From contig CAWJSR010000023.1 of the NCBI GenBank assembly GCA_963845515.1, positions 160,001 through 224,000 of the forward strand: a DNA stretch of 64,000 nucleotides. The letters run 5' to 3'. The notes under the pieces were generated by a model. The model saw only the letters and a program-made list of their open reading frames with translations, had not been told where the DNA came from and ran no database searches. The position numbers and the translations under genes were made by a program. The stretch comes from an uncultured delta proteobacterium (GTDB lineage: Bacteria; Myxococcota; Myxococcia; Myxococcales; Anaeromyxobacteraceae). Of the stretch, positions 4,804-53,722 are shown one piece after another (position 1 is the first letter of the stretch; each line of letters starts with the position of its first letter).

Positions 4804-4812
4804 GCGTCCGTC

Positions 4813-17526: not shown

Positions 17527-17906
17527 GTCGTCCCTCCCCGTGATGAAGCCGGCTTCGTGGCGATCCCGCTCTCCTTCAGTTCAACGTTCGGCGCGCAGGC
17601 CTCCTCCAGCGCGTCCGCCAGGTTCCTGAGGACGGCGGCGAGCGCCGTCGCGCGCACCCGGTAGAAGACCTCCTTGCCCTGCTTGCGCGCCTCGATGGCG
17701 CCGGCGTCGCGCAGGATCCGCAGGTGGCGCGAGACGACCGAGAGGTCGACGGTGCAGCAGGCGCCGAGGCCGGAGACGGTTCTCTCGCCTCCGCCGTCCG
17801 CCAGAAACGCGAGCAGCGCGAGGCGGGTGGGGTCGCCAAGGGCCTTGAACAGCGCCGGCGAGAGCCAGCGCTGGAGGTTGGGACAGCAGCTCGAGGAACC
17901 GACCAT
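17523..17906 (-). CDS. ArsR/SmtB-family metalloregulator
   Basis: FKALGDPTRL, SVVSRHLRILRDAG, GKEVFY; CC pairs at the N-terminus and before the recognition helix. Confidence 0.9.
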   Translation of the reverse strand: MVGSSSCCPNLQRWLSPALFKALGDPTRLALLAFLADGGGERTVSGLGACCTVDLSVVSRHLRILRDAGAIEARKQGKEVFYRVRATALAAVLRNLADALEEACAPNVELKESGIATKPASSRGGTT

Positions 17907-17940
17907 GGCGTTACGGTAGCACGGTTGCGTCGTTATGCAA
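17907..17940 (-). promoter_or_regulatory. Leaderless-type promoter of the arsR-hgc operon with inverted repeat
   Basis: Minus strand TTGCAT-16-TACCGT with extended TG, 6 nt before ATG; TTGCGT-N4-ATGCAA at 17925-17940. Confidence 0.55.
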
Positions 17941-18010
17941 ACAGACTGGGTTAGCTCGTATATACGGGGCATTGCGAGCTGAGTTTCGTGAGGACTCGAC
18001 AAGTGAGGCT

Positions 18011-37255: not shown

Positions 37256-37269
37256 TCCGTAATAACGGA
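37256..37269. promoter_or_regulatory. 14-bp sulfur box
   Basis: TCCGTAATAACGGA, flanked A..T. Confidence 0.8.
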
Positions 37270-37547: not shown

Positions 37548-38795
37548 TCACGAGGCTCGCTTCCGCCCCTGGGCCGGTCCGTCGAGCCGTTCCCGGAACA
37601 CCGGCAGGAGCTCGTCCTCGATCCGGTAGAGGTCGTGCTGGATCCCGTTGGTGGCCGCGTTGGAGTCGAAGACGTGCTCGAAGGTGATCCCGTGCTTCTT
37701 CCAGGAGCCGACGAGCTTCTCCGCGAGGTCGAGGTACCAGCCCGGCTCAGGCGCGCGGTGGCCGCGCAGCTCGGAGCCTGGGTTGGGGCACCAGACCGTG
37801 AAGGTGCTGACGACCCCCTTGCCGGCGAGCACCTCGAGCCCCTCCAGCGTGCGCGCCTTGGGCTCGATCCCCGCGACGAAGTTGGAGCGGACGCGCCCGT
37901 GGCCGAAGACCCGGACACCGTGCTCGAGCGCGCGGACCCAGTGGTCCCACCCGCCGGAGCTGCGCGCCTTTCCTGGGCAGATGACCTCGTAGATCCGCTT
38001 GTCCCAGATCTCGAGGTTCATCGCGGTGGTGCGGAACCCGGCCTCCTTGAACCGGTCGAGGTTCCCGAGATCGAGCGGAGCGGCGACCGTCGCCGTGCCG
38101 TTGAACTGGTCTTCCCCGGTCCGCTCCCGGATGGCCTCGGCCACGTCCAGGTAGTAGTCGAGCTCACGCCGCTCCGGGATGACGCCGCCGGTCACCGTGA
38201 GGTGCTTGAAGAGCCCCTCCTGCTTCGCGGCCGCGACCGTCTCTCCGATCTGCCCGGGCGTCTTCCACTGCGCGCCGTACTTGTCGTTGAAGACGTTCTT
38301 CGTCTCGTTGATGTTGCAGAAGAGGCAGTCCTCGCCGCGGTCCTTGTAGGAGCACTCGTTGCTGTAGACGATGAAGATGTGGCCGTCCGGGTTGGCGATG
38401 GCGATGGTCTGCATCGGCTTGCCGTCCGAGGTCTTCCGGTCGTAGAAGCCGGGACGAGGATGGAACGAGACCTCGAAGACCTCGTTCGCACCCTCGGCCA
38501 GGATGAAGCGCTCCCCGTCGAGCGCGAGCCGGTAGCGCGAGCGCGGGTTCCAGCGGACCGGCACGTCGAGGCCGTTCGGCGTCACGAACTCGGAGGGGAG
38601 ATCCCCCTCGTGCGGCTCGAAGTCCATCACGAAGAGGCAGTGGATCTGCTCCTTGACCTTCTGGCCGAGCCGGAGCGCGCGCAGCGCGTCCGAATCGACC
38701 GCGACGCCGTCCGTGACGACGTCCGTCTTCACCTTCAGCTCATGCCAGAGCTTCTTCTTCAGCTCGCCCGTCGATCCGGTGCTTGCGGTGCTCAT
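37548..38795 (-). CDS. Radical SAM protein 3 (CX8CX2C, subtype B)
   Basis: NECSYKDRGEDCLFC, TGG, ICPGK, PNPGSELRGHR. Confidence 0.88.
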   Translation of the reverse strand: MSTASTGSTGELKKKLWHELKVKTDVVTDGVAVDSDALRALRLGQKVKEQIHCLFVMDFEPHEGDLPSEFVTPNGLDVPVRWNPRSRYRLALDGERFILAEGANEVFEVSFHPRPGFYDRKTSDGKPMQTIAIANPDGHIFIVYSNECSYKDRGEDCLFCNINETKNVFNDKYGAQWKTPGQIGETVAAAKQEGLFKHLTVTGGVIPERRELDYYLDVAEAIRERTGEDQFNGTATVAAPLDLGNLDRFKEAGFRTTAMNLEIWDKRIYEVICPGKARSSGGWDHWVRALEHGVRVFGHGRVRSNFVAGIEPKARTLEGLEVLAGKGVVSTFTVWCPNPGSELRGHRAPEPGWYLDLAEKLVGSWKKHGITFEHVFDSNAATNGIQHDLYRIEDELLPVFRERLDGPAQGRKRAS

Positions 38796-38819
38796 CTTCG
38801 CTCCTCCTTTCGGCGCCGC

Positions 38820-39275
38820 TCAGACTTCGATGCTCGAGACTGCCGCCGGGCCGTGCCCCTTCGAGAAGTCCACGACCTTCACCTGCTTCGGCGTGACGCG
38901 GAGGAAGGCGTTCCCGCCCAGCTCACCCTTCTCGGCCCGCTCCTTGAACCGGGGGTTGCGGATCGAGATGAGCCGGATCGCCTTCGCCCGCTCCTCCTCG
39001 GTGGCCAGCACCTCCGCGACGCCGCGGATCTCCACGTTCGCGAAGTCCTTCACCTCCTGCTGCTCGTGCTGGAAGAGGATGGAGACGTTGGGGTTCGCGG
39101 CGATCTGGCCGACCTTGTCGGAGGTCTTCCCGGTCGAGAAGTAGACGGTGAGCCCGTCTGCCGCGAAGGAGCCGAGCGCGCGGGTGGCCGGCGTGTTGGC
39201 CGGGCCGACGGTCGACAGGATGATGAAGCGGGTGTCGTTGAGGTACTGCGGGACCTGCTGACGTTCCAGCGCCAT
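38820..39275 (-). CDS. Pyridoxamine 5'-phosphate oxidase-like FMN-binding protein
   Basis: ILSTV..P.TR, VYFST..S.KV.QI..NPNVS; own GGAG RBS but in frame with the upstream MFS. Confidence 0.8.
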   Translation of the reverse strand: MALERQQVPQYLNDTRFIILSTVGPANTPATRALGSFAADGLTVYFSTGKTSDKVGQIAANPNVSILFQHEQQEVKDFANVEIRGVAEVLATEEERAKAIRLISIRNPRFKERAEKGELGGNAFLRVTPKQVKVVDFSKGHGPAAVSSIEV

Positions 39276-40499
39276 GGGGTTGCTCCCTGTGTGACGAGAA
39301 GCGGCATCGCTCGCGTCCTGCGGGCGGTCGCGGTGCCGGGTGGAGGCCGCGCGGGCGCCGGCGGCGCCCACGGCCAGGAGGATGAAGAGCGGAAGGAAGA
39401 GGAGCAGGACGTCCTGTGCCGGGACCCAGCGGCCGGCCAGCGCGCAGGCCAGCGGTCCCAGGGTCACGCCGAGCCCCGCCGCGAGCTGGAAGAGCGCGGA
39501 GATCCTGCCCTTGGCCCCCGCGAGGCTCGCGATCCAGGAGGCGACGAAGACGTGGACGAGCCCGGTCGCGACGCCGATGGCGACGCCGGCAAGCGCGAGC
39601 GAGAGCGGTCCCGAAGCGATGGCCGTGCCGACCGTCCCCGCCACGCCTGCGAGCCCCGCGACCAGCCTGAGGCGCGCCCGATCTGCGGCGAAGCGGCCGC
39701 CCAGGAACGCGGTGACGACGAAGCTCAGCCCCTCGACGATCAGGACCCGCGAGGCGACCGCTGCGTTCGCGCCGTGCACCCTGACCGCGACGACGACGAC
39801 GAAGGCGCTGAAGGCCGAGAAGGTGGCGGCGCCCAGCATCTCCGCCGCGAGCGCGGGGCGGATCGACGCCGTGCGGAGCATCGCGAGCAGCTCGGCGGCC
39901 CGGTCCGCCAGCCGAGGCCTCGGCGACGCCGCGGCGTGCGCACGCGCCCCTTCGAGCTCGGCCAACGTCACCAGCGAGGCGGAGAGGAGATGCAGCGCCA
40001 CGACGACGCCGAAGAGCGTCGGGAACCCGGCGCTGCGGCCCAGGAGGCCACCGATGAGCGGTCCGAGGAAGGTGAGCCCCACCGACATCGACGCCTTGAA
40101 CCAGCCTGCCTTCTCGATCCCGATCGACCCGAGCTTCCCGTAGAACGACGCGGTGAGGGCGGTGAACCGGAGCGGCGCGAAGAGCCCCTCCAGCCCCATC
40201 AGCAGGACGACGAGGAGGGGCGAAGGGGCGGCGGCATAGACGACGGCTATCGCCGCTCCCGCGAGCGCGCCGACCCGGAAGACGCGCCTCGCGCCGAGGT
40301 GATCGACGAGGAAGCCGATCGGGATCACGACCAGGAGCATCCCGAGCCCGCCGACGGAGCGGACGAGCCCGATCTGCGCGTTGGTCGCCCCGCCGCTCAG
40401 GGCGAGCAGCGGGACGCCGAGCTGCATCACCCCGCCGGCCGTACCGACGAGGACGTTGAGCGCGAAGAAGCCGACCGCGAGCCGGGCGCCGCGTGGCAC
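39276..40499 (-). CDS. MFS transporter (no stop seen before the PNPOx-like domain)
   Basis: GFLVDHLGARR, GGRFAADR, about 12 TM; similar to the MFS at 23621. Confidence 0.8.
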
Positions 40500-40574
40500 G
40501 GACGGCGACGCCTTCGCCCGGGAGCGGCCCGGCGGTGTCGAGCGAGATGGCCACGGGGTCCCGGTCCGATGCCG

Positions 40575-41802
40575 CTACTCGAACATCTCCATGAAGGCCT
40601 TGAGGCGCGTGACGTTCTGACCGGTCGGGACGCCGGTCTGGAAGGAGCCGTCGAGGATCAGGGACGGGATTCCGACCGCGTTGAAGTGCTTCTTCAGCAC
40701 CTCGAAGTTGACCGAGCTGAAGGAGCACCCGAAGTAGCCGTAGAAGATGATCCCCTTCGAGCCGGTCCTCTGGAGGGCGGTCTCGAGGTGGGGGAGCTGG
40801 TCCTTCGAGCCGCCGGGGCCGCCCATCCCGATGACCGTGTTCCGGGCGACGGCACGGAGGGGACGCAGGCTCTCGTCGTAGTCGCGCAGGAGCAGGCCGG
40901 TCATCGTCCAGCTGGAGATGTAGCCGTTCAGGTCGTCGAAGAGCTTGTAGAGGCCGAACTCCTGGCCGCGCCCGCCGGCCCAGATGATGGGCACCCGCGT
41001 CGACTCGACGCCGCGCTTCGCGTACCGCTCCAGCTCGTCGGTGAGCTGATCGAGCAGCTCTTCGTACTCTCCGGGTACACCGTAGTTGTGGTTGGCGCCG
41101 TTCCAGACGAAGAGCGTCTCGAGCGTGCCGATGTAGTCGGGGTTGGCGACCTGGAGCTCCAGGATCCGCCGCACCTTGGCGTGAAGGCGGTTGAGCCGAC
41201 GAGTCTCCTGTCCGAGCCGCGCTTCGTCGTAGGCCCCTCCGAGCCACGTCGCGAGGCCGAGCAGCTCCTGCTCGGCGAAGTCGACCAGGCTCTCGAAGCG
41301 CTCCCCTTCGACGCCCTCGGCGCGGTAGGGCAGGTCGACCGAGTAGATGTCGTACCCCTCGTCCTTGAGCACCTCGAAGGCGGCGTTGTAGGGCTCACAG
41401 AGCGAGCAGTAGTTGATGAGCCGCTTGAAGAGCGCCTTCCGCTTGAGCAGCTCCCCCATGGTGGCCTTCACCATGGAGCAGGTCTCGCGGGCGATGCGGA
41501 AGTAGTCCTCCGCGAGCGCGACCGAGCCGTCTCCGGCGAGGCGGCCGAGCTCGGGGAAGACGCACGGGAAGGTGTCCGTGGCGTGGATGATCGGGGCGTC
41601 GGTCATGCCGCCGCCGTAGACCACCTTGCGCCCCTGGCTGGTGAGCCTCGTCCGCGCGCTGGATGTAGGTGAGCGCCAGGTCGAAGATCCGGTCGACCGC
41701 GGGGGATCCGGTGCGGGACTTGAGGTAGTCGATCTGGCCGAGCTCGGCGTGCTCTGGGCGGCGCGAGAGCTGGACGACTGGGCTAAGCGGGGACGCGGAC
41801 AT
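40575..41802 (-). CDS. 2-hydroxyacyl-CoA dehydratase / BcrB-family subunit with apparent frameshift at ~41638
   Basis: ETCSMVK, CSLCEPY, DLP, FGCSF, GIPSLILDG, TRLKAFMEM. Confidence 0.78.
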
Positions 41803-42895
41803 CGGTCTCTCCCTTCTTGAGCAGCTCGAGGAACGCGCCGACCCGGGTCCGGAGCTGCCCCAGGTCGCTCTCCGAGTAGTCGGATGAGAGCTCCAGGACG
41901 GGGATCCCGAGCTTCTCGAAGCGCTTCGCGAAGGTGTTCCCGGTGATCGCGTAGCAGCTGCAGAACTTGAGGCTCACGTAGACGATGGCGTCGACCCGGT
42001 ACTCCCGGGCTAGCTGCTCGCTGAAGTCGAGCCGCTCGGTGAGCGGCTTCATGCGCGCGCAAGGGGCGGAGTCGAGGTAGCCGTCCGACAGCGCCTGGAG
42101 CGGAGGGACGTCCTCGGGGATCTGGCCGTAGAACGGCCGGAGGCCGGTGCAGTGGTCCTCGACCACGATCCGGGTGTCGAGCTCGTCTTCCAGGAGCTCC
42201 TCGAGCCTGTGGTCGCCGTCGGCGACGATGCCGCCGGAGACCATGATCCGAAGCGGGCGTTCGCCAGAAGGCTGCTCTGCCGTGAGCTGGCCGAGCAGCC
42301 GCTCGAAGTGCTCGGTGCTCTTCTCGATCGGCAGGTAGTAGAAGGCCTTCACCAACTCCAGATATTCGCCGCCGGTGATCGGTGGATCGTCCCGCTTGCG
42401 CAGCTCGGAGATCGCCTTCAGCAGCCGGCGCGCGCGGTTGTAGCGCGAGATCTCGGCCCGCAGCCCGCTCTCGGTGACCCGGTTGCCGGTCAGCTCCTCC
42501 ACGTCCTTCTGCATGAACGCGACCTCCCGGCGCATGAACTCGCGGGAGGCGGTCCGGTTCCGCTCGCGAGGGAGGCAGAGCATCCGGTACGGCACGTCGA
42601 AGAACTCACCGATCGCCTCGACCCCCTTCTTCATCTGGTCGCAGGTGTTGAAGTGGTAGAGCTTGTCGATCGACGTGTAGAGGGGGTCCCCCTCGCGGAA
42701 CGCACCGACGCTGTACTGCGCGAACTGGCAGAAGAAGCTGCGGGTGTGGACCTCGCCGCTGTTGACCGTGTTGGCGTCGCCACCCTTGAAGAGGCGCACC
42801 GGCGTCGCGCCGGCCGCGGCGATCAGCTCGGCCGGCGTGTAGACGCAGAAGTACCCGGCGCGCTTCGGCGCGCCCCCGCTGCTAGCTGGCGTCAC
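41783..42895 (-). CDS. 2-hydroxyacyl-CoA dehydratase / double-cubane-like subunit
   Basis: GYFCVYTPAELI.AAG, TCDQMKK, EDHCTG, PCARM, KFC, LRTRVGAFLE; AAGGAGG RBS before GTG 42895. Confidence 0.85.
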   Translation of the reverse strand: MTPASSGGAPKRAGYFCVYTPAELIAAAGATPVRLFKGGDANTVNSGEVHTRSFFCQFAQYSVGAFREGDPLYTSIDKLYHFNTCDQMKKGVEAIGEFFDVPYRMLCLPRERNRTASREFMRREVAFMQKDVEELTGNRVTESGLRAEISRYNRARRLLKAISELRKRDDPPITGGEYLELVKAFYYLPIEKSTEHFERLLGQLTAEQPSGERPLRIMVSGGIVADGDHRLEELLEDELDTRIVVEDHCTGLRPFYGQIPEDVPPLQALSDGYLDSAPCARMKPLTERLDFSEQLAREYRVDAIVYVSLKFCSCYAITGNTFAKRFEKLGIPVLELSSDYSESDLGQLRTRVGAFLELLKKGETDVRVPA

Positions 42896-43775
42896 TGAGG
42901 ACCTCCTTCGCACGCCCCAGGTCGTGGCGGAGCGAGCCGAGCAGGTCGCGATCCTTGCGGCGGTGCTCCCGCTTCGCCACCTGGTTCTCCGAGTACTCAC
43001 GCGCGTAGACCGCAGCGCCGAGGGCGCCCGCGTACTGGGCGTCGAGCGAGAGATCGACGAAGTTGGCCTTCGTCACCTCCTCCAGCGCGCGCCGCATCCC
43101 CCTGTTCTTGGAGACGCCCCCCGTGAAGACGACGTCCGACTCGATCCCGACGCGGGAGAGGAGGTTACCGACGCGCCGCGCCACGGAGAGGTGGACGCCC
43201 GCCGCGATGTCCGCCTGGCTGACGTCCTGCGCCTTCAGCGAGATGACCTCGGACTCGGCGAAGACGACGCACTGGCTCGTCACCTTCACGATCCTGGTGG
43301 ACTGCAGCGAGACCTCGCCGAGCTGCTCGACCGGGAGGTTGATCGACGCGGCGATCATCTCCAGGAACTTCCCCGTGCCGGCGGCGCACTTGTCGTTGAG
43401 CACGAAGCCCGCGACCTTGCCGTTTCGCGGGTCGACCTTGATCGCCTTCGAGTCCTGGCCGCCGATGTCGACGATGGTCCGGACGTTGGGGTGCAGGTAG
43501 TGCGCGCCCTTCGCGTGGCAGGAGATCTCGGTCACGTCCCCGTAAGGGATCCCCTCGAAGCCGAGGGTGATCCGGCCGTAGCCAGTCCCGACGATGTAGG
43601 CGAGCTCACCCTTCGTCGTGCGCCCCTTCTGGAGCAGCTCTTCTACGAGGGCGTCGCCGGTCTCCTGCATGTTGAAGCCGGTCGGCCGAATGGCAGTGAA
43701 GATCTCGCTGCCGACCAGCAGCACGCCCTTGGCCGTGCGCGATCCGATGTCCAGCCCCAGCACTCTCTTGGTCAT
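42882..43775 (-). CDS. HgdC/BadF-type ATP-dependent activase (ASKHA, [4Fe-4S])
   Basis: GLDIGS..AK, GTGYGR, TEISCHAKG, DIGGQDSK, NDKCAAGTG.FLE, CVVFAESEV, TGGV. Confidence 0.93.
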   Translation of the reverse strand: MTKRVLGLDIGSRTAKGVLLVGSEIFTAIRPTGFNMQETGDALVEELLQKGRTTKGELAYIVGTGYGRITLGFEGIPYGDVTEISCHAKGAHYLHPNVRTIVDIGGQDSKAIKVDPRNGKVAGFVLNDKCAAGTGKFLEMIAASINLPVEQLGEVSLQSTRIVKVTSQCVVFAESEVISLKAQDVSQADIAAGVHLSVARRVGNLLSRVGIESDVVFTGGVSKNRGMRRALEEVTKANFVDLSLDAQYAGALGAAVYAREYSENQVAKREHRRKDRDLLGSLRHDLGRAKEVLSDAS

Positions 43776-43840
43776 GTCCGGCTCTTTCGCGGTCCGCGAC
43801 GAAGTGACGGCGCGGTTCGTGGTGCGTGAGGGGCGGGAGT

Positions 43841-43857
43841 CTGCAAGCGACGTGCGC
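43841..43857 (-). promoter_or_regulatory. sigma54-like element (non-canonical)
   Basis: GCGCACG-tcgc-TTGCAG on the minus strand upstream of the activase. Confidence 0.5.
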
Positions 43858-44026
43858 GCCCTTCGGCGAGCCAACGGCGCGCACGAAGAGCCATTCGAGC
43901 GGGCTCGGCGCCGCCGCCCGTCGGGGGGCACGGGGCGCCCAGCGCCAGTGACGGAGGCCCGTCCGCGATCACGGACGCCAGCGAGGCAGCGCGCCCAGAC
44001 CTCTGCGGCGCAAGCTCGGGCGCTAC

Positions 44027-44050
44027 TTGACGGCCGTCCGCCATAACGGA
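44027..44050 (+). promoter_or_regulatory. metK promoter with 14-bp sulfur box
   Basis: TTGACG 44027-44032; TCCGCCATAACGGA 44037-44050. Confidence 0.75.
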
Positions 44051-44134
44051 TAGACAGTACGGAGCCTCGCGCCGTCGTCTCGCGAGCCGATTCCCGGTCA
44101 CCTTCGACCGCCGAAACCACACGGAGCCGCACCG

Positions 44135-45283
44135 ATGCCGACCCATCACCTGTTCACCAGCGAGTCCGTCTCCGAGGGGCACCCGGACAAGGTCGCCGAT
44201 CGGATCTCCGATGAGCTCCTAGACGGCTACCTTCGCGAGGCGCCGAAGGCGCGCGTCGCGATCGAGACGCTCGTCACCACCGACCGCGTCGTCGTCGCCG
44301 GCGAGGTTCGCGGCGCGGAGGTTGGGCTGGAGGCGCTCGCGCGGAAGGCCATCCGCGACGTGGGCTACGCCGCGCCGGGCTTCCACTGGGAGACGCTCCG
44401 CTTCGAGTCACACGTCCACGCGCAGTCGGCGGAGATCGCACAGGGAGTGGACCGGGAAGACGGCGAGGAGGGGGCAGGCGACCAGGGGCTCATGTTCGGC
44501 TTCGCGTGCAGGGAGACGCCGGAGCTGATGCCGGCCCCGCTTCAGTACTCGCACCGGATCCTCGAGAAGTTCGCCGAGCGCCGTAAGGCTGGCGACAAGG
44601 ATCTGGGCCCCGACGCGAAGTCGCAGCTCACCGTCGAGTACGTGGACGCCAAGCCGGTCCGCGTCCACACGGCCGTCGTCTCGCACCAGCACGTGGCCAG
44701 CCTCTCCAACGCCGCCCTCCGGGACCTCGTCGGAGAGGTCCTGAAGGAGGTGCTGCCCGAGGGCTGGCTGACGGGGGACACCCGGATCCTGGTGAACCCT
44801 ACCGGCTCCTTCGTCCACGGCGGTCCCGCCGCCGACACCGGCCTCACCGGCCGGAAGATCATCGTCGACACCTACGGCGGCGCGGCTCCCCACGGCGGCG
44901 GCGCCTTCTCCGGCAAGGATCCGAGCAAGGTCGATCGCTCCGCGGCGTACGCCGCCCGCTACGTGGCCAAGAACGTGGTGGCGTCCGGCCTCGCGGACCG
45001 CTGCCTCATCCAGATCGCCTACGCGATCGGCGTCGCGGAGCCGCTGGCCCTCTATGTCGACACGCAGGGGACCGGAAAGGTGCCCGACGCGAAGATCGCC
45101 GAGGCCGTCCGGAGGACCGTCTCGCTCACGCCGCGGGCCATCCGGGAGCGGCTGGCCCTGACGAAGCCCATCTACGCCCGGACCGCCGCCTACGGCCACT
45201 TCGGCCGGACGCCGACGCCGGACGGCGGCTTCTCGTGGGAGCGGACCGATCTGGCGGACACGCTGCGCGCTGCGGTGGGGTAG
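44135..45283 (+). CDS. metK: S-adenosylmethionine synthetase
   Basis: [42 protein letters not shown]. Confidence 0.98.
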
Positions 45284-45286
45284 GGG

Positions 45287-46546
45287 ATGGCTGGCGCGGC
45301 GGCCGTGCTGCCGTCTCAACAGTCCGAGCTCCACGACGAGATCCTCCTGTCGACCGAGCTCTACGTTGAAGGGATCTCCGTCGCTGACGAGGACCTCGCC
45401 CGGTTCGCCGTCGGCACCGAGGTCAACGAGCAGCGGCACCTGCTCTTCGACATGAACCGGCGCCATCGCAGGGAGGTCCTGCTTCCCACGGAGCTCTTCC
45501 TGCCGCGCGGCAGCGCGGTCCTCTTCCGCTGGGACGCCGGCTCCCGGTTCTCCCTGCGCGCGGTGGACGGGAGGGCGGTCGTCTTCAGGGACGGGAAGCC
45601 CATCTCCGAGGTCGAGCTCTTCCGCCGCCCTGCGATCAACGACTCCGTGACGAGCGACGGGACGGCCTTCAACAAGCTCGCGTCCTTCTGTCACGAAGGG
45701 AGCGTCCACTTCTTCTTCAGCAACGAGTGCGCGCTGAAGGGGACGGGAGACGACTGCAAGTTCTGCAACATCAACTCGACCGCCGCGGCTTTCGGAGACC
45801 ATACGGTCTTCTTCAAGAGTGCGCGGCAACTCGGCGAGGTCTACGCCGAGGCGTTTCAGTCCGGGTGGGCGAACCACGCCCGGCTCACCGGCGGCTTCAT
45901 CCCGGAGCGCCGCGAGGTCGAGTACTACCTGGACGTCGCCGAGGAGTTCAAGGAACGAACGGGTCAGGAGTCTCTTCACGCCCTCACGGTCATCGGGGCG
46001 CCGCACGACCTCACGGTCATCGAGAAGTACAAGGAGGCGGGCTGGAGCAACCTGGCGATCAACATCGAGATCTGGAACGAGAAGATCTTCAACGTGATCT
46101 GCCCGGGGAAGTCGAAGCAGTTCGGGGGGTGGAAGAGCTGGCTGCGGGCGCTCGAATATGCGGCGGAGGTCTTCGGCAAGGGGAACGTCCGCTCGAGCAT
46201 CGTGTCGGGCCTGGAGCCGAAGGACTCGACGCTGGAGGGGGTGGAGCACCTGGCCTCTCTCGGCGTCATCGCGTTCCCCGGGCCGTGGATCCCCAACCCC
46301 GGCTCGGCTCTGGAGGGGCACCGGACGCCGGAGCCTTCCTGGCACTACGACGTGATCCGGAAGTCGGCGGCGATCTACGAGCGGCACGGCTTCACGACCG
46401 AGCAGCTCTATTCGTGCGGTGGTTGGCAAACTCCGTTCATCGACACCTTCCGCGTGAACAAGGGGGAAGCCGTGGACGGAAGGCTGCCGCTCTGGAAGTT
46501 CCCCGATCGGAGGACCGCCGGCGCAGGTCGGCAGGGGCGAAGCTGA
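45287..46546 (+). CDS. Radical SAM protein 4 (CX8CX2C, subtype A)
   Basis: NECALKGTGDDCKFC, TGG, ICPGK, PNPGSALEGHR. Confidence 0.88.
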   Translation: MAGAAAVLPSQQSELHDEILLSTELYVEGISVADEDLARFAVGTEVNEQRHLLFDMNRRHRREVLLPTELFLPRGSAVLFRWDAGSRFSLRAVDGRAVVFRDGKPISEVELFRRPAINDSVTSDGTAFNKLASFCHEGSVHFFFSNECALKGTGDDCKFCNINSTAAAFGDHTVFFKSARQLGEVYAEAFQSGWANHARLTGGFIPERREVEYYLDVAEEFKERTGQESLHALTVIGAPHDLTVIEKYKEAGWSNLAINIEIWNEKIFNVICPGKSKQFGGWKSWLRALEYAAEVFGKGNVRSSIVSGLEPKDSTLEGVEHLASLGVIAFPGPWIPNPGSALEGHRTPEPSWHYDVIRKSAAIYERHGFTTEQLYSCGGWQTPFIDTFRVNKGEAVDGRLPLWKFPDRRTAGAGRQGRS

Positions 46547-46549
46547 GCG

Positions 46550-46596
46550 ATGCGGATCTGCTTCTTCGGCGACAGCTTCGTCGCTGGCGTAGGCCT
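46550..46596 (+). pseudogene. Remnant N-terminus of an SGNH/GDSL hydrolase
   Basis: MRICFFGDSFVAGVG (block I) followed by sequence with no SGNH resemblance. Confidence 0.45.
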
Positions 46597-46720
46597 CCGG
46601 CGACGGCGCGCATCCGGGCGCGCGCGGATACGCGCTGATCTCGGAGGCGGTGGAGTCCTGGTCGGCGTGGAGGGCCTGGATTCCCTGACCCCACCAGCGC
46701 ACCTACATGCTGCGAGAGCG

Positions 46721-47421
46721 ATGAGCGCGATCAAGGCGATCTCCTTCGACGGGGACATGACCCTCTGGGACTTCGAGAGGGTCATGCGCCATTCCCTCGG
46801 CCACGCCTTGGCGGAGCTGCGGGAGCGCCGACAGTGTTCTGCGACCGAGCGGATGACCGTCGACGCGATGATCGAGATTCGCAACGGCGTGGCGGCGGAG
46901 AGCTCAAGGGGAAGGTGACTCACCTCGAGGAGCTCCGCTTTCGCGCCTTCGAGCGCACCGTCGAGCGGGTCGGCGGCGCTGATCGTCGGCTGGCGTCCGA
47001 ACTGAACGCGGTCTACCTGAAGCACCGCTTCGAGGACGTCGAGCTGTACGACGACGTGGCGCCGGCGCTCGATCTGCTGGGGAGACGCTTTCTCCTCGGG
47101 TTGATCTCGAACGGGAACGGGTATCCGGAGCGCTGTGGGCTCGGTGAGCGGTTCGCCTTCGTCGTCTTCTCGCAGGACGTGGGGGTCGAGAAGCCAGCCC
47201 CCGGGATCTTCCACGCCGCGTGCCGTCGGGCGGGCTGCGACCCGCAGGAACTCCTGCACGTCGGTGACTCCCTCGAATCGGACGTCCTGGGAGCGAACGA
47301 GGTCGGCGCTGTATCGGTGTGGCTGAATCGCGGAGGAGCGTCGAACGCGTCGCGCATCCGGCCTCGCTTCGAGGTGTCTTCGCTGACCGAGTTGCGCTCG
47401 ATCCTGGAGCCCCCGCCATGA
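46721..47421 (+). CDS. HAD-family hydrolase with apparent frameshift at ~46905
   Basis: IKAISFDGDMTLWD in one frame; ISNGN, EKP.PGIF, HVGDSLESDV in another. Confidence 0.8.
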
Positions 47422-47522: not shown

Positions 47523-47553
47523 TTGACCGGACCGAGCGTCCGTTATATAGGAT
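47523..47553 (+). promoter_or_regulatory. sigma70 promoter with sulfur box over the -10
   Basis: TTGACC 47523-47528; TCCGTTATATAGGA 47539-47552. Confidence 0.78.
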
Positions 47554-47560
47554 GCCGGTC

Positions 47561-48832
47561 ATGACCGGTCGAACTGCGGAAGTGCTCGCGCTCCACCCGA
47601 AGGAAGACGCCTCCGAGCTGGATGCCACGTGCGCTCGCCACCCCGACGTCCCACGCCTGGTGATCGTCAAGACCGACGTCCAGCGGCGCGGCGTCCACTA
47701 CACCGAGGGCGCCCTCGCGCTCCTCGACGAGAACCGCCACTCGGTCACCGGGACGCACATCTTCGGAGCGCGCGACGGGAAGCTGGCGCCCCGGCCGGAG
47801 TCGCTGCTCCTGCGCGACGGCAGCTCCATCATCACCACCCCGACGCCGGAAGAGCAGAGACCCTACGTGGTGGATCACGTGGACGGCCGCCTCGCGCTAG
47901 TGGACCGCGGCGAGGTCATCGAGGAGGTCGAGTACTGGCCGCGGCCGGACTACTACGCGAAGACGACGCGCTCCGGGCTGCCCATGAAGTACGTGGTGAG
48001 CGCGCGGCCCCAGCGGCTCAACGTCTTCCCCTACCGTCACTGTCACTTCTGGAACGAAGACGAGGGCTGCCTCTTCTGCGACATCGTCAAGCAGACGCGG
48101 AAGGGCAAGGACGATCTCGGCATCCCGCCGCGCCTCGACCCCGAGGACGTGCGCGAGACGATCGCCGAGGCCCTGCGCGAGCCCGGGCGGTTCGCCGGCC
48201 TCTGCCTGACGGCGGGCTCGAACACCCGCGGCGCCCGTCCGTTCGACGCGGAGGTCGACTACTACATCGAGATCCTCCAGGCCATCGGCTCGGCGTTCAG
48301 GACGCCGCGCTTCCCGAGCCAGCTGATCGGCACGGCCTTCGAGACGGATCAGCTCGAGCGGCTCCACGCCCAGACCGGCCTCATGAGCTACACGGCGGAC
48401 GTCGAGGTGCTGGACGAGAAGCTCTTCTCCTGGATCTGCCCGGGCAAGGCGCGGTGGGTGGGCTACCGCGAGTGGAAGGATCGGCTGGCGCGCGCGGTCG
48501 ACATCTTCGGCCGCGGCAGGGTCAACACGGGCATCGTCGCGGGGGTGGAGCTGGCGCGTCCAAACGGCTTCAGATCAGAGGCCGAAGCCCTGAAGAGGAC
48601 GCTGGACGAGGCGGAGGAGCTCGCCGCGCGCGGGGTCAGCACCGTCTTCATCGTCTGGTCGCCGCGCCCCGGAACGCCGCTCGCCGGGCAGCGCAACGCG
48701 TCGCTGGGCTACTACGTCGCGCTCGCGAAGGGGCTGCACGATCTCCGCGTCCGACATGGCCTCCCGATCGACTTCGACGACTACCGCCACTGCGGCAATC
48801 ACCCCGACACCGACCTCTCGAGGCTCCTGTGA
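47561..48832 (+). CDS. Radical SAM protein 5 (CX8CX2C, divergent)
   Basis: HCHFWNEDEGCLFC, WICPGK, VAGVE, PRPG; start 47561 (alternative 47552). Confidence 0.87.
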   Translation: MTGRTAEVLALHPKEDASELDATCARHPDVPRLVIVKTDVQRRGVHYTEGALALLDENRHSVTGTHIFGARDGKLAPRPESLLLRDGSSIITTPTPEEQRPYVVDHVDGRLALVDRGEVIEEVEYWPRPDYYAKTTRSGLPMKYVVSARPQRLNVFPYRHCHFWNEDEGCLFCDIVKQTRKGKDDLGIPPRLDPEDVRETIAEALREPGRFAGLCLTAGSNTRGARPFDAEVDYYIEILQAIGSAFRTPRFPSQLIGTAFETDQLERLHAQTGLMSYTADVEVLDEKLFSWICPGKARWVGYREWKDRLARAVDIFGRGRVNTGIVAGVELARPNGFRSEAEALKRTLDEAEELAARGVSTVFIVWSPRPGTPLAGQRNASLGYYVALAKGLHDLRVRHGLPIDFDDYRHCGNHPDTDLSRLL

Positions 48833-49296
48833 CCACCGCCGTCGCTCTCGATCCACGCGTCAAGGCGCTGCTCGACGATCCGACCACGGTGAAGGTGCTG
48901 GCCACGAGCGATCGCGCCGGGCGCCCGCGCGCCACCGTCGACGACTCGATCCACCTGGGTCCGGGCGGCCACCTAGTCTACCTGGAGCGGCTGGAGGGCT
49001 CGGGGACCCAGCGGGACCTCGTGGCGGGGATCTGGTTCGACCGGCCGGTGGCCGTCACGCTCCGCAGGGGGCAGGAGGAGGTCGAGATCGTCGGGCGTCC
49101 GGTGAAGTCGCTCGTCGCCGGTCCCGAGTTCCGGCGCCACTACGAGGCGCTGCGCGCCCGCCTGCCGGAGGGAGACCTGGCCGCCGTCTGGCTCATCCAG
49201 CCGAGCGAGGTCTCCGACCTTTCGTACGACGTCCGCCGCGCCCGCCAGGAGGCGGAGCGCCCCTTCCTCACCCACCTCGACCGACTGGCGCGGTAG
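48829..49296 (+). CDS. Pyridoxamine 5'-phosphate oxidase-like protein
   Basis: KVLATSDRAGRP, YLERLEGS.TQ..LV..IWF; GTG overlaps the radical SAM stop. Confidence 0.72.
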   Translation: MTTAVALDPRVKALLDDPTTVKVLATSDRAGRPRATVDDSIHLGPGGHLVYLERLEGSGTQRDLVAGIWFDRPVAVTLRRGQEEVEIVGRPVKSLVAGPEFRRHYEALRARLPEGDLAAVWLIQPSEVSDLSYDVRRARQEAERPFLTHLDRLAR

Positions 49297-49316
49297 CGCC
49301 CCTCAGGAGGAGCACC

Positions 49317-50321
49317 ATGTCCCGCATCCGGCAGTCCGTCCTCGCGATCCTCGCCCTCACGGCGTTGGCCGTCCCCGTTGCGCCGCTGGCAGAGGTGAAG
49401 GAGGTCCGGATCGCCAGGCAGCACGGTCTGGGGTACCTGCCGCTCCTCGTCCTGGAGGACCAGAAGCTCATCGAGCGTCGCGCGGCGGAGGCGGGGCTCG
49501 GCGACGTGAAGGTCACCTGGGCCGTCCTCGGCGGCGGCGCCCCGTCCAACGACGCGCTCCTCTCCGGCAGCGTCGACTACATCTCGACCGGCGTCACGCC
49601 GCTCGTCCTGCTCTGGGCGAAGTCGGGCGGCAAGGTCAAGGGCGTCTCCGCGCTCATCTCGACGCCCGTCGTCGTGAACACCACCAACCCCGCGGTGAAG
49701 ACGATCGCCGACTTTGGCGAGAAGGACCGGATCGCGGTCCCGTCGGTGAAGATCTCGATCCAGGCGGTGGTGCTGCAGATCGCCGCCGAGAAGGCGTTCG
49801 GCGCCGGCAACCACGGCCGGCTCGATCCGCTCACGGTGGCGTTGAAGCACCCCGACGCCGTAGCGGCCCTGCTCTCCGGCCGCTCCGAGATCACCGGCCA
49901 CGCCGCGAGCCCGCCCTTCGTGGCGCAGGAGCTGGCCGACAAGCGCGTCCGGAAGGTGCTCTCGTCCTACGAGGTGCTCGGCGGGCCCCACACCTTCAAC
50001 GTGCTCTCCTCCTCGCAGACCTTCGCGGACGCGAACCCCAGGACGTTCGCGGTGGTCTACGGCGCGCTGTCCGAGGCCATCGCCTGGATCCAGAAGAACC
50101 CGAAGGCCGCCGCGGAGACCTACCTCCGAGTCACCGGCTCGAAGGAGCCCGTCGGCTCGGTGGTCGCGCAGATCGAGGATCCGACCATCCGCTACACGAC
50201 GACGCCGGAGCGGGTGGGGGTGTTCGCGGAGTTCCTCGCGCGTGTCGGGACCGTCTCGGCGCGCCCGAAGGACTGGCGCGACCTGTTCTTCCCCACCGTG
50301 CACGCGCAGCCGGGGAGCTGA
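49317..50321 (+). CDS. NitT/TauT-family ABC substrate-binding protein
   Basis: Signal peptide, RIARQHGLGYLP, NDALLSG, IAVPSVKISIQA, HPDA. Confidence 0.85.
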   Translation: MSRIRQSVLAILALTALAVPVAPLAEVKEVRIARQHGLGYLPLLVLEDQKLIERRAAEAGLGDVKVTWAVLGGGAPSNDALLSGSVDYISTGVTPLVLLWAKSGGKVKGVSALISTPVVVNTTNPAVKTIADFGEKDRIAVPSVKISIQAVVLQIAAEKAFGAGNHGRLDPLTVALKHPDAVAALLSGRSEITGHAASPPFVAQELADKRVRKVLSSYEVLGGPHTFNVLSSSQTFADANPRTFAVVYGALSEAIAWIQKNPKAAAETYLRVTGSKEPVGSVVAQIEDPTIRYTTTPERVGVFAEFLARVGTVSARPKDWRDLFFPTVHAQPGS

Positions 50322-50322
50322 C

Positions 50323-51109
50323 GTGTCGGAGCATGCCTCGGGCCCCGGCGCGCCGCTGCTGGACGTGGCGGGGGTGACGCTTCGTTACCGGAGCGCCGGG
50401 CGCATGGTGGACGCCACCGACGCGGTCTCCTTCCAGGTGAACGAGGGGGAGCGGGTGGCGCTGCTGGGGCCCTCGGGCTGCGGGAAGTCGACGCTGCTCA
50501 AGGCCATCGCCGGCTTCCACCGGCCGGCCGCGGGCCGGATCTCGCTGCGCGGCAAGGACGTGGTCGCGGCCGGTCCCGACCGCGTGGTTGTCTTTCAGGA
50601 GTTCGAGCAGCTCCTCCCCTGGCTGACCGTCACCGAGAACGTCGTCTTCGCCCTCAGAATCCGCGCGCGGCCTCGCGCGACCGGAGGCGCTCCGCATCAC
50701 GAAGGAGCACGTCGCCCGGGTGAACCTCACGGGCTTCGCCGACGCCTACCCGCACGAGCTCTCCGGCGGGATGAAGCAGCGCGTGGCCATCGCCCGCTGC
50801 CTCGCGCTGAAGCCGGAGGTGGTGCTCATGGACGAGCCGTTTGCCGCCCTCGACGCCCTCACGCGCCAGCGGATGCAGGACGAGCTGCTCGAGCTCTGGA
50901 AGGCCGCCCGCTTCACGCTGGTCTTCGTGACCCACGACATCGCCGAGGCGCTTCGGGTCGGCACCAGGGTGGTGCTCATGTCCGCGCACCCGGGGCGCGT
51001 GCGGGCGGACCTGCGGGTGGGCGAAGGCCCGCTCGCGGGCTCCACGGAGTCGACCCAGGCGCACGTCCGGGAGCTCCTCTTCGAGGGCGTGGGGGACTGG
51101 AGCATATGA
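50323..51109 (+). CDS. NitT/TauT ABC ATP-binding protein with apparent frameshift at ~50655-50715
   Basis: [19 protein letters not shown]; then LSGGMKQR, DEPFAALD in another frame. Confidence 0.85.
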
Positions 51110-51963
51110 GCGTCGAGCAGGCCGTCGCAGTCGTTGCGCCGCCGCCCGTGGCCGAAGGGGCAACTGGGTCGCCGCGGATCCTCCTTGCGTGGCTCGTGGA
51201 CCAGGGCTGGCTCCGGAAGCTCGTGCTGCTCGCCGCCCTGGCGGGGCTCTGGGAGGCGTACGCCCGCCACCTGGCCAACCCGCTGCTCGTGCCGACCTTC
51301 TCGTCCACGGGCTCCGCGCTCGTCGAGGAGCTGCTCCACGGCGAGCTCCTCGCCAGGATCGTCTCTTCCTTGAGGCTCCTGCTCGTCGGATATGCGGTCG
51401 GGGTCGCGCTGGCGACGGCGCTCACCCTCCTCGCCGTCGGGACCCGCCTCGGAGCGGACCTGCTGGAGCTGCTCACCGCCATGCTCAACCCGCTGCCCGC
51501 GGTGGCGCTGCTCCCGATCGCGCTGCTCTGGTTCGGGATCGGGCAGGGGAGCATCGTCTTCGTGCTCGTCCATGCCGTGGTCTGGCCCGCGGCGCTCAAT
51601 GCGCACGCCGGCTTCGCGGGCGTGAGCCCCACCCTCCGGATGGTGGGGCGGAACTACGGGCTGCGCGGCCCTCGCTTCGCCTTCCGGATCCTGGTGCCCG
51701 CCGCCGCGCCTCACCTCCTGACGGGGCTGAAGGCGGGGTGGGCGTTCGCGTGGCGCACCCTGATCGCGGCGGAGCTGGTCTTCGGCGTCAGCTCGGGCCA
51801 GGGCGGGATCGGTTGGTACATCTACGAGCGTAAGAACCTGCTCGAGATGCCCCAGGTCTTCGCCGGCCTCGTGGTCGTGGTCCTGATCGGGCTCGCCGTC
51901 GAGAACGGCATCTTCAAGCGCATCGAGGCGAGGACGGTGCGGCGGTGGGGAATGCGGAGCTGA
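51106..51963 (+). CDS. NitT/TauT ABC permease
   Basis: NPLPAVALLP.ALLWFG, WAFAWRTLIAAELVFG. Confidence 0.88.
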   Translation: MSVEQAVAVVAPPPVAEGATGSPRILLAWLVDQGWLRKLVLLAALAGLWEAYARHLANPLLVPTFSSTGSALVEELLHGELLARIVSSLRLLLVGYAVGVALATALTLLAVGTRLGADLLELLTAMLNPLPAVALLPIALLWFGIGQGSIVFVLVHAVVWPAALNAHAGFAGVSPTLRMVGRNYGLRGPRFAFRILVPAAAPHLLTGLKAGWAFAWRTLIAAELVFGVSSGQGGIGWYIYERKNLLEMPQVFAGLVVVVLIGLAVENGIFKRIEARTVRRWGMRS

Positions 51964-51966: not shown

Positions 51967-53722
51967 TCAGCTCAAGACAGACGCCAGCGCGAGGAAGAGG
52001 AGGACGAGCGCCTCCCCGGTGATGAAGCCGGCCGCCAGCGGCGTCGCGTAGACCTGCTCGCGGCGAGGGTCCGCGCGGCGCCAGAGGGTGCTGACGATCC
52101 CGCCGAGGACCATGGGAACGACGGCGTTGGCGGGGATGAGCATCCCGATGCCGATCGCCGTCGGCGAGGGGACCCAGCGCCGGAAGCGCGTGCTCTCCCC
52201 GAGCGTCAGGGCGAGCCCCACGACGAGCGCCAGGATCAGCGCGGCGAAGGCGCTCGAAGGCAGCGCGCCGAAGCCGCGGGAGAGCAGCTCGGCGAAGCCG
52301 GCCCACTTCACGCTGATCGGCGAGGTGAGGCCACCTGCGCCGCCGATCCCGAAGCGTGCGCGAGCGGCTGGGTAGGTGATGGCCACGGCGAGCGCGCCCA
52401 CCGGCACGCCGACCAACTGAAGGAGGGTCAGGTTCCGGTTGGAGGAGCCGACCACCTTACCCGCGCGGAAGTCCTGCATCAGGTGCTCGCCGTTGCCGGC
52501 GATCGTCCCGCTCATGCCCGAGCCGATCATGTTGATCGGGACGTGGCCGGGCGCGAGGAGGGCGAAGACGGCCTGCATCACGTTGGCCATGGCGCTGATG
52601 GGGGCCCAGTTGGTCTCGCCGAGCACCCGGATGCCGACGAGCATCAGCACGACCGACAGCGCGATCGACAACAACGTCAGCCGGATCGGGAAGCCGAGCG
52701 AGCGCCACTGGACGAGCGCCAGGGCGATCGCGGCCAGCGAGCCCGCCCCAGACCACCCACCGCATCGGGAAGTCGTCGCCGTCGCCGGTCTCCCGCGCGG
52801 CGAGCCCCGTGAAGGTCCTCGCCACCTCGCGCCACCGGAGCGCGAGCGCGGTGAGCCCTCCCGCGACCATCAGGCCGGTCGCCGGCCACATGGTCCAGCG
52901 CTGGAGCAGGGTGTTGAACGTGAGCTCCGAGACGACGCCGCTCGCGAGGAGCGGCCCCGGCGCGACGATCCAGGCGAGGGCCATCCCGAGCCCCATCGAC
53001 AGGGTGACCCGCAGGCCGACGAGCATCCCCGCGCCGACGGACAAGGCGCCGACCTCCGCGCCGAGCCGCAGGGCGGCCGCGTGCGGCGTGATCGCGGTGA
53101 AGGGGATGGACCCGGGGAGCCACCGGAGGCCGTCGCGGGCGAGCGTGACCAGCGCGGAGAGGAGGCCGCCGATCCCGAGCGCAGCGACCCGAGGGCCCGC
53201 CTGCCGCGGCCCCTCGTCGAGCACGAGGAGCGTCAGCCCCGCGGCCGTTCCGTCGGCGAAGGGCAGGTTCTCGTCGTCGATGAAGTGCTTGCGGAGCGGG
53301 ACCGCGAGGAGCACCCCGAGGATCCCGGCGGGGGTCAGCCACGCGAAGATCTGGAGGCGGGAGAGGTGGACGGAGAGCAGCCCCCGATCGTTCAGCATGT
53401 CGATGGCGGCCAGGACGACCGCCATGAAGCCGACCCCTGCGCCGGCCGCGGTGCCCGCAGTCTGGACGAGGTTGGTCTCCCAGCGGGTGCCGCGCACCCC
53501 GGTGACGAACCCGACGAGCGAGATGAGGATGAAGCCGAGGAACGCGCTCACCACCGAGAGGTTGGGGCCGTAGCCGATCTTGAGGACCACGAGCGGTTCG
53601 GCTGCACCCATGAGCGCCGCCACGAGGACGGCGACCGCCACCGCGCGAACGGTCAGCTCGCGGTGCCGCCTGGTGGGATCGAGAGTTGGTGGCGGCAGGG
53701 CGGCGTCCGTGGTAACAGACAT
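51967..53722 (-). CDS. OPT-family (YSL-like) transporter with apparent frameshift at ~52740
   Basis: ELTVRA, ETNLVQT, LAVPLRK, LPFADG; C part GETNWAP, QDFRAG, AAGFITGE. Confidence 0.85.

Follow-up and report, generated by a model that had tools for sequence, protein, structure and literature searches.

We analysed a 64,000-nucleotide stretch of DNA (the window; positions 160,001 to 224,000 of contig CAWJSR010000023.1) from an uncultured member of the Anaeromyxobacteraceae, and in it a gene cluster, here called module 2, that encodes an ATP-dependent activase, two subunits of the HGD-D family (alpha and beta) and radical S-adenosylmethionine (SAM) proteins. The source is a metagenome-assembled genome (MAG) of 4.74 Mb in 58 contigs that is 88% complete. 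Because the G+C content of the window is so high (70%), open reading frames (ORFs) were picked by third-position G+C and then checked with Pfam and NCBIfam. By these profiles the whole window is a sulfur island, with cysDN, a sulfate ABC system and cystathionine beta-synthase and gamma-lyase-type genes. The island also holds three NMT1/SsuA-type ABC importers, one NflHDK set and five radical SAM genes of the same family. The NflHDK set is part of a second unit, module 1, whose operon is headed by a porin gene. An Rfam scan of the entire window at gathering thresholds found no riboswitch and no other RNA family.

The genes of module 2 are listed in Table 1. A sequence-only reading of the same DNA had described the genes between 37548 and 46546, and Pfam and NCBIfam recover all of that gene content; the end of the module needed correction, since the plus-strand unit runs on to 51963 and does not stop at 46546. 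That reading had also given MFS and PNPOx-like proteins as two genes. Both are present, but in a single ORF of 559 amino acids, with MFS_1 at residues 13-349 and PNPOx_N at residues 415-543. A fusion of a transporter with a flavin-binding domain is unusual; the congener G001 has it in frame as well, in Anaeromyxobacter oryzae the two matches abut, and congener G002 and Geobacter have a separate gene for each. The two MFS proteins are paralogous as claimed, if distantly (27% identity over 311 residues, E = 2e-9), and have the PLRF and AGW motifs in common. The activase most likely starts at the methionine at 43778, with TIGR00241 spanning residues 7-257, so that the spacer to metK is 356 bp. 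Alpha starts at a GTG at 42895 with GGAGG in front, and beta at an ATG at 41802. The repeated box noticed in the divergent spacer was found there and is described below as an operator.

Table 1. Features of module 2 and its flanks; positions are those of the window.
Feature	Position	Strand	Basis or remark
Operator-like palindrome TCCGTAATAACGGA	37256..37269	.	between the stop of radical SAM gene 37548 and the likely true porin start
Radical SAM "B2", IsrB family, 415 aa, Cx8CxxC	37548..38795	-	NF045502 437 bits, cut-off 125
MFS with C-terminal PNPOx-like (FMN-binding split-barrel) fusion, 559 aa	38820..40499	-	Pfam, single ORF
Beta subunit, HGD-D (PF06050), predicted three-Cys [4Fe-4S] catalytic subunit	40575..41802	-	Pfam, Cys alignment
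Alpha subunit, HGD-D (PF06050), 370 aa, six predicted [8Fe-9S] ligand Cys	41783..42895	-	HGD-D 292 bits
HgdC/BzdQ-type ATP-dependent activase ("archerase"), 298 aa	42882..43778	-	TIGR00241 250.6 bits, cut-off 125.4; BcrAD_BadFG 194 bits
Divergent promoter region, two operator copies	43779..44134	.	copies at 43962-43975 and 44037-44050, spacing 75 nt
Second, divergent MetK (SAM synthetase paralogue)	44135..45283	+	TIGR01034 477 bits
Radical SAM "A2", IsrB family, 419 aa	45287..46546	+	NF045502 396 bits
HAD-superfamily hydrolase, two frames in the assembly	46550..47421	+	PF00702 on 46834-47421
Divergent fifth radical SAM, "r5" clade	47552..48832	+	NF045502 186 bits
SsuA-like binding protein, split	48847..50321	+	TIGR01728 SsuA_fam 80 bits, below cut-off 163.5
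ABC ATPase, split	50242..51109	+	profile scan
ABC permease	51190..51963	+	profile scan

Alpha and beta are the only HGD-D genes in the genome. When alpha was scored against equivalog models of CoA-thioester enzymes it stayed below every cut-off (HadC 101.9 of 700 bits, BzdN 100.4 of 453.8, BcrC 78.4 of 421), and the activase did so as well (BzdQ 178 of 380, BcrA 158 of 578). Among solved structures alpha is closest to the double-cubane protein DCCP (7yyl/6eno, E = 1e-38), then to BzdN (E = 2e-28), MbdN and HadC, and the beta profile also has DCCP as its best match (E = 8e-25), while beta itself scores 42.8-54.1 bits against NF040772, the model of the double-cubane proteins or cluster IV of the FldB/C family (cut-off 350). 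Six cysteines are invariant in an alignment of 16 clade members (A1): C12, C51, C80, C244, C274 and C307 of the 365-residue fragment, which are C17, C56, C85, C249, C279 and C312 of the full protein. In alignment they fall on the six [8Fe-9S] ligands of DCCP (PMC7317905), and their spacing agrees with that of the BzdN ligands Cys36, 73, 100, 263, 293 and 327 (PMC11971306); both papers are cited, here and below, from parts of their text. The seventh, non-ligand cysteine of DCCP (Cys94) is gone in alpha, which reads "rlfkgg" where DCCP has "glc-gg".

In related loci the activase lies directly 5' of alpha, and in nearly all of them a beta ORF of about 400 amino acids lies directly 3'. We found exactly three invariant cysteines in a 30-sequence alignment of beta. 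These align with the proximal-subcluster cysteines of DCCP, and two cysteine positions of the C domain are missing. BzdO has the same pattern (Cys95, 128 and 380; PMC11971306), and a three-cysteine pattern characterises the substrate-binding subunits BzdO and HadB (PMC11971306, PMC7317905). The architecture of alpha, beta and activase is thus BzdNO-like by its cysteines, with a single HgdC-type activase, and the clusters are predicted to be [8Fe-9S] in alpha and [4Fe-4S] in beta. Six cysteines in alpha and three in beta suggest a plan in which electrons would pass from the activase to a double cubane on alpha and on to an open-site [4Fe-4S] cluster on beta. The constant presence of the beta paralogue argues for an alpha-beta heterodimer, and its three-cysteine site is of the type that binds substrate, as would be expected more of an independent enzyme than of an electron shuttle. 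A complex prediction of beta with radical SAM protein 37548 (alignments A2 and A4) scored 0.00 against a mark of 0.32, which is no answer and speaks neither for nor against binding. Two or three activase-alpha-beta sets stand side by side in loci L017, L018, L037, L045 and L049, and in many loci two activase genes flank alpha-beta, resembling four-subunit benzoyl-CoA reductases.

The first 83 alpha homologues listed share 44-96% identity with alpha and the next ones at most 35%, and the homologues form a discrete clade by this gap. Fusions of activase and alpha occur in 8 of the 120 listed homologues. Since the window's own order, outside the genus, gave only matches of at most 31% identity, the clade was traced in a species-wide genome collection. 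The scan of one genome per species yielded 57 alpha-centred loci from at least nine major lineages (Myxococcota, Geobacteraceae, Alphaproteobacteria, Verrucomicrobiota, Acidobacteriota, Bacillota, Actinomycetota, Spirochaetia and Methanoperedens). ORFs of these loci were clustered, recurrent clusters were named by Pfam and neighbours were recounted with hidden Markov models; clusters in fewer than three loci were left out. NMT1/SsuA-type binding proteins were found in 32 of the 57 loci (23 of the 33 that are at least 15 kb long) and ABC permeases in 33. Less frequent neighbours were PNPOx-like (12), IsrB-like radical SAM (10), NflDK (9), CysK-like (9), MetY/CGL-like (8), NifS-like (8) and MetK (6) genes. 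At least one sulfur marker is present in 43 of the 57 loci and in 30 of the 33 of at least 15 kb. In contrast, none of ten control loci around distant HGD-D paralogues (23-31% identity) of related genomes contained a sulfur marker. This contrast is large despite the kinship among the loci and the way the markers were chosen.

The operator is a 14-bp palindrome, TCCGYNATNACRGA, with eight distinct sites in the window, starting at 4807, 10956, 20519, 37256, 43962, 44037, 53706 and 55976. It gave 13 strand matches where 0.87 were expected, a number that none of 100 shuffles reached, whereas the looser palindrome TCCG-N7-CGGA was not enriched (5 matches, 6 expected). All eight sites are in promoter-like positions. 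Four are at cysD, sbp, a hydrolase/cystathionine lyase unit and the head of module 1, two are in the module-2 spacer, one is in the spacer between the OPT and aldo-keto reductase genes, and one precedes the gene of an HTH_3-cupin regulator. The perfect palindrome TCCGTTATAACGGA recurs at matching places in relatives within the Anaeromyxobacteraceae, and the motif of the module-2 spacer is found at the equivalent position in congeners G001 and G002. Judged by these positions, the operator probably marks a local sulfur-gene regulon in which both modules are linked with cysDN and sbp. The HTH_3-cupin gene (55176-55862), with one site about 114 nt in front of it, is a candidate for an autoregulated regulator. 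An HTH-cupin protein of Escherichia coli regulates sulfur utilisation. The signal that the operator responds to would presumably be sulfur status.

All five radical SAM proteins pass the NF045502 ("variant_rSAM") cut-off of 125, with 437.3, 396.0, 431.7, 456.5 and 185.9 bits, and the five NF045502 copies of the genome are all inside the window. In alignments A3 and A4 they share a Cx8CxxC motif and a fourth invariant cysteine, which are C148/C157/C160 and C273 in protein 37548. The invariant columns of these alignments match the IsrB motifs in Fig. S4 of PMC11423573 (Cx8CxxC in YSNEC..DCLFCNIN, GGFVPE and TGLxDF), a comparison made with the IsrB orthologue printed in that figure, with Rhodobacter capsulatus IsrB itself outside the alignment. 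By these motifs the five genes belong to the IsrB family. A search of PDB chains with the radical SAM profile gave no match at E 0.01, so a fold search was used. The AlphaFold model of protein 37548 (pLDDT 93.7) has its nearest folds in HydE, LipA (lipoyl synthase), MqnE, BioB, PylB, HydG and ThiH, with TM of about 0.4-0.5.

A tree of 108 family members (FastTree only, some long branches flagged) allowed the copies to be compared. The sequence-only reading had seen in the A and B radical SAM genes of module 2 a mirror of module 1, which is half right because the A copies, 45287 and 25678, share a clade (58% identity) but 37548 forms its own clade of three rows. The latter is 48% identical to both module-1 copies, and the B pairing was rejected. 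The other module-1 copy, 27029, falls in the clade that usually adjoins NflK. Gene 47552 belongs to a distant clade, r5 (15 rows, support 100), whose relatives adjoin ABC transporter genes and are without a reductase in the vicinity. In G001, the closest congener, metK is directly followed by the r5 gene, without an equivalent of 45287. The MetK of module 2 had been proposed to be a dedicated one, and it is indeed a second, divergent copy in the genome (TIGR01034 477 bits; the copy on contig C43 reaches 594 bits). A second MetK fits radical SAM enzymes that would use up SAM and give back methionine. A 5'-deoxyadenosine/MTA nucleosidase-like gene, present in three Pseudobutyrivibrio loci, agrees with this.

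In module 1, NflD has a single cysteine, Cys75, NflK has Cys10, 35 and 100 (and Cys461), and NflH has Cys97 and Cys133 among its four cysteines. Because this signature agrees with that of IsrD (Cys74), IsrK (Cys12, 37 and 99) and IsrH (Cys99 and 135) (PMC11423573), we consider module 1 to be an NflHDK unit of the isethionate reductase (Isr) type, which is Group IV-F Nfl, with an SsuCAB-like importer. Growth on isethionate requires IsrB and IsrHDK alike (PMC11423573, PMC13474568). The requirement for IsrB together with IsrHDK has been published only for R. capsulatus (PMC11423573), and a July 2026 review calls the function of IsrB obscure (PMC13474568). An SDR oxidoreductase gene (24864-25670, minus strand) follows the radical SAM genes of module 1, a position kept in relatives and in many metagenome loci. 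Elsewhere in the window there is an hgcA-hgcB-like mercury-methylation pair (15345-16714 and 16711-18002, both on the minus strand). Its HgcA scores 402 bits with NF040863 (cut-off 275), and the ORF directly 3' of hgcA has a C-terminal two-[4Fe-4S] ferredoxin-like sequence and a cysteine-rich tail. A DVU_1556-family methyltransferase gene and an ArsR-type regulator gene stand directly 5' of the pair.

The sequence-only reading had further proposed that module 2 swaps the nitrogenase-like reductase for the activase system and that both are wired to the same radical SAM family. Other genomes do show the radical SAM family together with each of the two kinds of ATP-driven reductase. We compared 68 radical-SAM-centred metagenome loci, of which 35 are at least 8 kb long; some share a contig or an apparent organism, so independent numbers are smaller. 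Among the 35, Nfl is present in 29, activase and alpha in seven, all seven of them with Nfl, and neither in six, so a swap is contradicted; alpha/activase and Nfl often stand in one co-directional string. The number of radical SAM copies ranges from one to six per locus. Tandem arrays of four to six IsrB-family paralogues with a single NflHDK, usually with an intervening SDR gene, occur in L141, L144, L149, L157, L159, L164 and L166. At the genome level, 23 of 50 alpha-clade genomes have an IsrB-like match, against 26 of 401 sampled Myxococcota, and therefore the families travel together more than expected by chance. The proposed wiring fares less well. An IsrB-like gene lies within 10 kb of alpha in ten of the 57 loci, and 27 of the 50 genomes have no family match at E 1e-30, many of these being incomplete MAGs. 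In A. oryzae the cluster NMT1-ABC-NflHDK-rSAM-SDR-MFS-PNPOx-rSAM, with MetK about 2 kb on, has no double-cubane genes, yet orthologues of radical SAM gene 37548, MFS, PNPOx and MetK sit in it; this cluster, together with the substrate-type three-cysteine site predicted for beta, also speaks against wiring. The double-cubane system is an addition to Nfl and IsrB islands and not a substitute, and about half of its genomes are without IsrB-like genes.

Several genes of this assembly are out of frame. The frame change in beta, near 41638-41640, is a single extra nucleotide that is unique to this assembly: it is missing in two congeners and in contigs from four public runs of three studies. Four further genes are split, namely the HAD hydrolase, SsuA-like and ABC ATPase genes of Table 1 and the OPT gene (51967-53722). 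Because the base in beta is absent elsewhere and four neighbouring genes are split too, we read the breaks as assembly indels, which is unproven. Third-position G+C stays at 0.9-1.0 on both sides of each break, which suggests that the other split genes are also single-base errors. If the mutations were real instead, the module would be decaying in this organism. Breaks in five genes within about 12 kb would agree with decay, but the codon bias that continues across every break, the absence of the beta base from other assemblies, and the ease with which many single-base frame changes fit an indel-prone assembly of a MAG make this improbable.

Taken together, we propose at a probability of roughly 0.45 that module 2 is an added ATP-dependent reductase for anaerobic organosulfur assimilation, with C-S cleavage at the open iron site of beta. 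It would be a three-protein, very-low-potential reductase of the benzoyl-CoA reductase/hydroxyacyl-CoA dehydratase/double-cubane (HGD-D) superfamily that works without CoA chemistry. The HgdC-type activase would inject electrons, driven by ATP, into the [8Fe-9S] double cubane of alpha, from where they would pass to the three-cysteine [4Fe-4S] cluster of beta, at whose free iron site a small substrate would be reduced. The enzyme would belong to a sulfur-limitation regulon as an add-on to its Isr-type NflHDK/IsrB neighbour, and would cut reductively the C-S bond of an imported organosulfur compound. As one candidate chemistry, by analogy with 2-hydroxyacyl-CoA dehydratases, an alpha-sulfo carbonyl such as sulfoacetaldehyde could lose sulfite in a ketyl-type elimination; a carbonyl of this kind could be made from a hydroxy-sulfonate by the SDR of module 1. 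The freed sulfur would feed cysteine and methionine synthesis. The IsrB-family paralogues may be substrate-specific radical enzymes with SAM as co-substrate, and the extra MetK may remake SAM from the methionine they release.

A number of points weigh against this proposal. The best curated family for alpha is NF040772, but at 237.5 bits alpha is below its threshold of 350. The link to sulfur is drawn from gene neighbourhood and from a motif with a candidate regulator and a presumed signal, and ketyl-type desulfonation is suggested by analogy only. The known activities of double-cubane proteins, as given in the cited part of PMC7317905, are the reduction of acetylene, hydrazine and azide, with no sulfur compound among them. 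Beta is out of frame here, and the organism may be without the enzyme if the insertion is real. Fourteen of the 57 loci have no sulfur marker; 11 of these fall short of 15 kb, the longer exceptions being L037, L039 and L049. Loci of related organisms do not count as independent cases, and the markers were selected once the clusters had been viewed. Finally, the gene order around the activase-alpha-beta core varies among three congeners, so the accessory genes are not a fixed operon.

We weighed three other accounts of the enzyme. It could be a conventional CoA-thioester enzyme that just happens to sit beside sulfur genes, either a 2-hydroxyacyl-CoA dehydratase or a benzoyl-CoA reductase of class I. 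Its Pfam HGD-D and activase families are identical to those of such enzymes, BzdN, MbdN and HadC are among the PDB matches, and the paired activase genes of many related loci are like those of benzoyl-CoA reductases. Yet the equivalog scores given above are all under cut-off, identity to that group is at most 35% compared with at least 44% within the clade, and the control paralogues have no sulfur context. In addition, no CoA-transferase or CoA-ligase domain was found among the ORFs scanned between 18 and 58 kb, in line with the sequence-only reading, which saw none nearby, nor any such gene among the annotated recurrent neighbour clusters of the alpha loci. Since alpha and beta are also the only HGD-D pair of the genome, we regard a standard hydroxyacyl-CoA dehydratase as ruled against and a conventional CoA enzyme of any kind as very improbable. 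Less far-fetched, though still unlikely, is a reductase that is co-regulated with sulfur genes and acts on another target, either a small inorganic or organometallic molecule or Fe-S enzymes in need of repair or maturation under sulfur scarcity. A preprint, cited from part of its text, connects a putative locus for organometallic uptake with double-cubane proteins of NF040772 (10.1101/2022.07.06.499078); NifS-like cysteine desulfurases adjoin eight of the 57 loci, and hgcAB lies in the same window. Against such a target stand the commonest neighbours, SsuA/NMT1-type importers, the recurrence of CysK-like and MetY-like enzymes that consume sulfide or thiols, and the operator common to cysDN and sbp. 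Metal-efflux and selenoprotein genes are likewise missing among the recurrent neighbour clusters, from which clusters in fewer than three loci were left out.

The third account returns to the radical SAM enzymes. NflHDK and activase/alpha-beta would be two unrelated ATP-driven devices that feed very-low-potential electrons to IsrB enzymes, which would do the C-S chemistry with SAM supplied by MetK. The division of labour between IsrB and IsrHDK, each essential on isethionate, is unknown (PMC11423573, PMC13474568), and IsrDK lacks ligands for a catalytic cofactor. One NflHDK is often accompanied by two to six tandem IsrB paralogues, and a supplement tallies 65 IsrB orthologues against 34-40 of IsrH, IsrD and IsrK (PMC11423573), an excess in keeping with one reductase serving several radical SAM enzymes of different substrate specificity. 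The dedicated second MetK and the enrichment of IsrB-like genes in alpha-clade genomes point the same way, but that enrichment is confounded by relatedness and by a shared anaerobic, sulfur-scavenging lifestyle. The low count of IsrB-like genes near alpha, the 27 genomes without a match and the fact that the alpha system never replaces Nfl all argue against electron feeding, as does the substrate-binding-type site of beta. Moreover, the fetched flanks of r5-type radical SAM genes, and those in locus L171, contain no reductase of either kind. We therefore think a feed of this kind distinctly unlikely. A sharper form, in which IsrB enzymes need a potential beyond that of ordinary ferredoxins and NflH/NflDK and the archerase/double-cubane pair were recruited separately as ATP-driven electron pumps, we hold to be slightly less probable again. 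If true, it would be the first example in which the reduction of a radical SAM cluster is coupled to ATP, with IsrDK and the double-cubane protein as dedicated electron injectors and not catalysts.

The proposal of an added organosulfur reductase bears on proteins that have had no physiological role since their discovery, according to the cited parts of papers of 2020 and 2025 (PMC7317905, PMC11971306). A discrete heteromeric clade, spread over many phyla amid genes for sulfonate-type import and for cysteine and methionine synthesis, gives double-cubane proteins a concrete and testable role. Cultured carriers of the alpha clade exist, and therefore genetics is feasible; by their record titles they include Rhodoblastus sphagnicola DSM 16996, Rhodopseudomonas rhenobacensis DSM 12706, Azospirillum sp. 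TSO22-1 and Sporobacter termitidis DSM 10068. A transfer of isrBHDK into Cereibacter sphaeroides has already been made. For IsrB, the options are narrowed by arrays in which one NflHDK has as many as six tandem paralogues, by the dedicated MetK and by a predicted HydE/LipA/BioB-like fold. The July 2026 review calls the regulators of Isr-type clusters unknown (PMC13474568), and the palindromic operator offers a first handle on them. In the open-access papers and preprints searched we found none that links HGD-D, double-cubane or activase proteins to sulfur assimilation; two 2026 papers on Mar do not mention dehydratase, benzoyl-CoA or activase, and the review does not mention double-cubane or benzoyl-CoA reductase. 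The Isr system is already published.

The closest solved relative of both alpha and beta is the DCCP/DCCP-R system of Carboxydothermus hydrogenoformans (PDB 6ENO, 7YYL). As in DCCP, alpha retains all six [8Fe-9S] cysteines, an HgdC-type ATPase gene is adjacent and no CoA genes are nearby. The lost seventh cysteine and the activase-alpha fusions recall the "class III" candidates described in the cited part of PMC7317905. DCCP is homodimeric and each of its subunits carries a cluster, whereas in the system described here alpha nearly always has a cluster-poor beta paralogue behind it. Alpha is also under the NF040772 cut-off, and for DCCP neither a physiological role nor a genomic link to sulfur is known. 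BzdNO/BzdPQ (PDB 8S02) and MbdNO resemble module 2 in combining a six-cysteine subunit (BzdN) and a three-cysteine subunit (BzdO) with BadF/BcrAD-type ATPases. They differ in that identity is about 30% or less, the BzdN and BcrC scores of alpha are far under the cut-offs, and module 2 has one activase gene where they have two different ones. Module 2 also has sulfur genes as neighbours and no CoA ligase or downstream dienoyl-CoA/ring-pathway genes. With HgdAB/HadBC and HgdC/HadI it has in common the Pfam family, the activase family and the three-cysteine open-site cluster of the catalytic subunit, and the ketyl-radical chemistry of our proposed mechanism is borrowed from these 2-hydroxyacyl-CoA dehydratases. 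Their accessory subunit, in contrast, has no six-cysteine double cubane. HadC carries a single [4Fe-4S] cluster with three cysteines and a sulfhydryl on the unique iron (PMC7317905), a HadC-type accessory cluster is termed [4Fe-5S] in PMC11971306, and the HadC score of alpha is low. Those enzymes also depend on a CoA transferase, of which the scanned ORFs hold no example.

Two further known systems were compared. In IsrBHDK with SsuCAB of R. capsulatus (PMC11423573) the cysteine signatures and transporter context correspond to module 1, all five radical SAM proteins are of the IsrB family, and module 2 likewise appears as an ATP-driven reductase in an anaerobic sulfur-scavenging setting. The NifH/NifDK-like Isr proteins are unrelated in fold to activase and alpha-beta, and the published Isr cluster has one IsrB upstream of isrH, with no double-cubane genes, MFS-PNPOx or MetK described (PMC11423573). 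The methylthio-alkane reductase MarBHDK, as far as the accounts cited go, is like module 2 in its proposed function, the ATP-dependent reductive cleavage of C-S bonds for sulfur under sulfate limitation, but it uses nitrogenase-type clusters with a NifB-like maturase and has no sequence relation to module 2. If our proposal is true, module 2 would represent a third, evolutionarily independent ATP-driven route to organosulfur under anoxic conditions, beside Mar and Isr.

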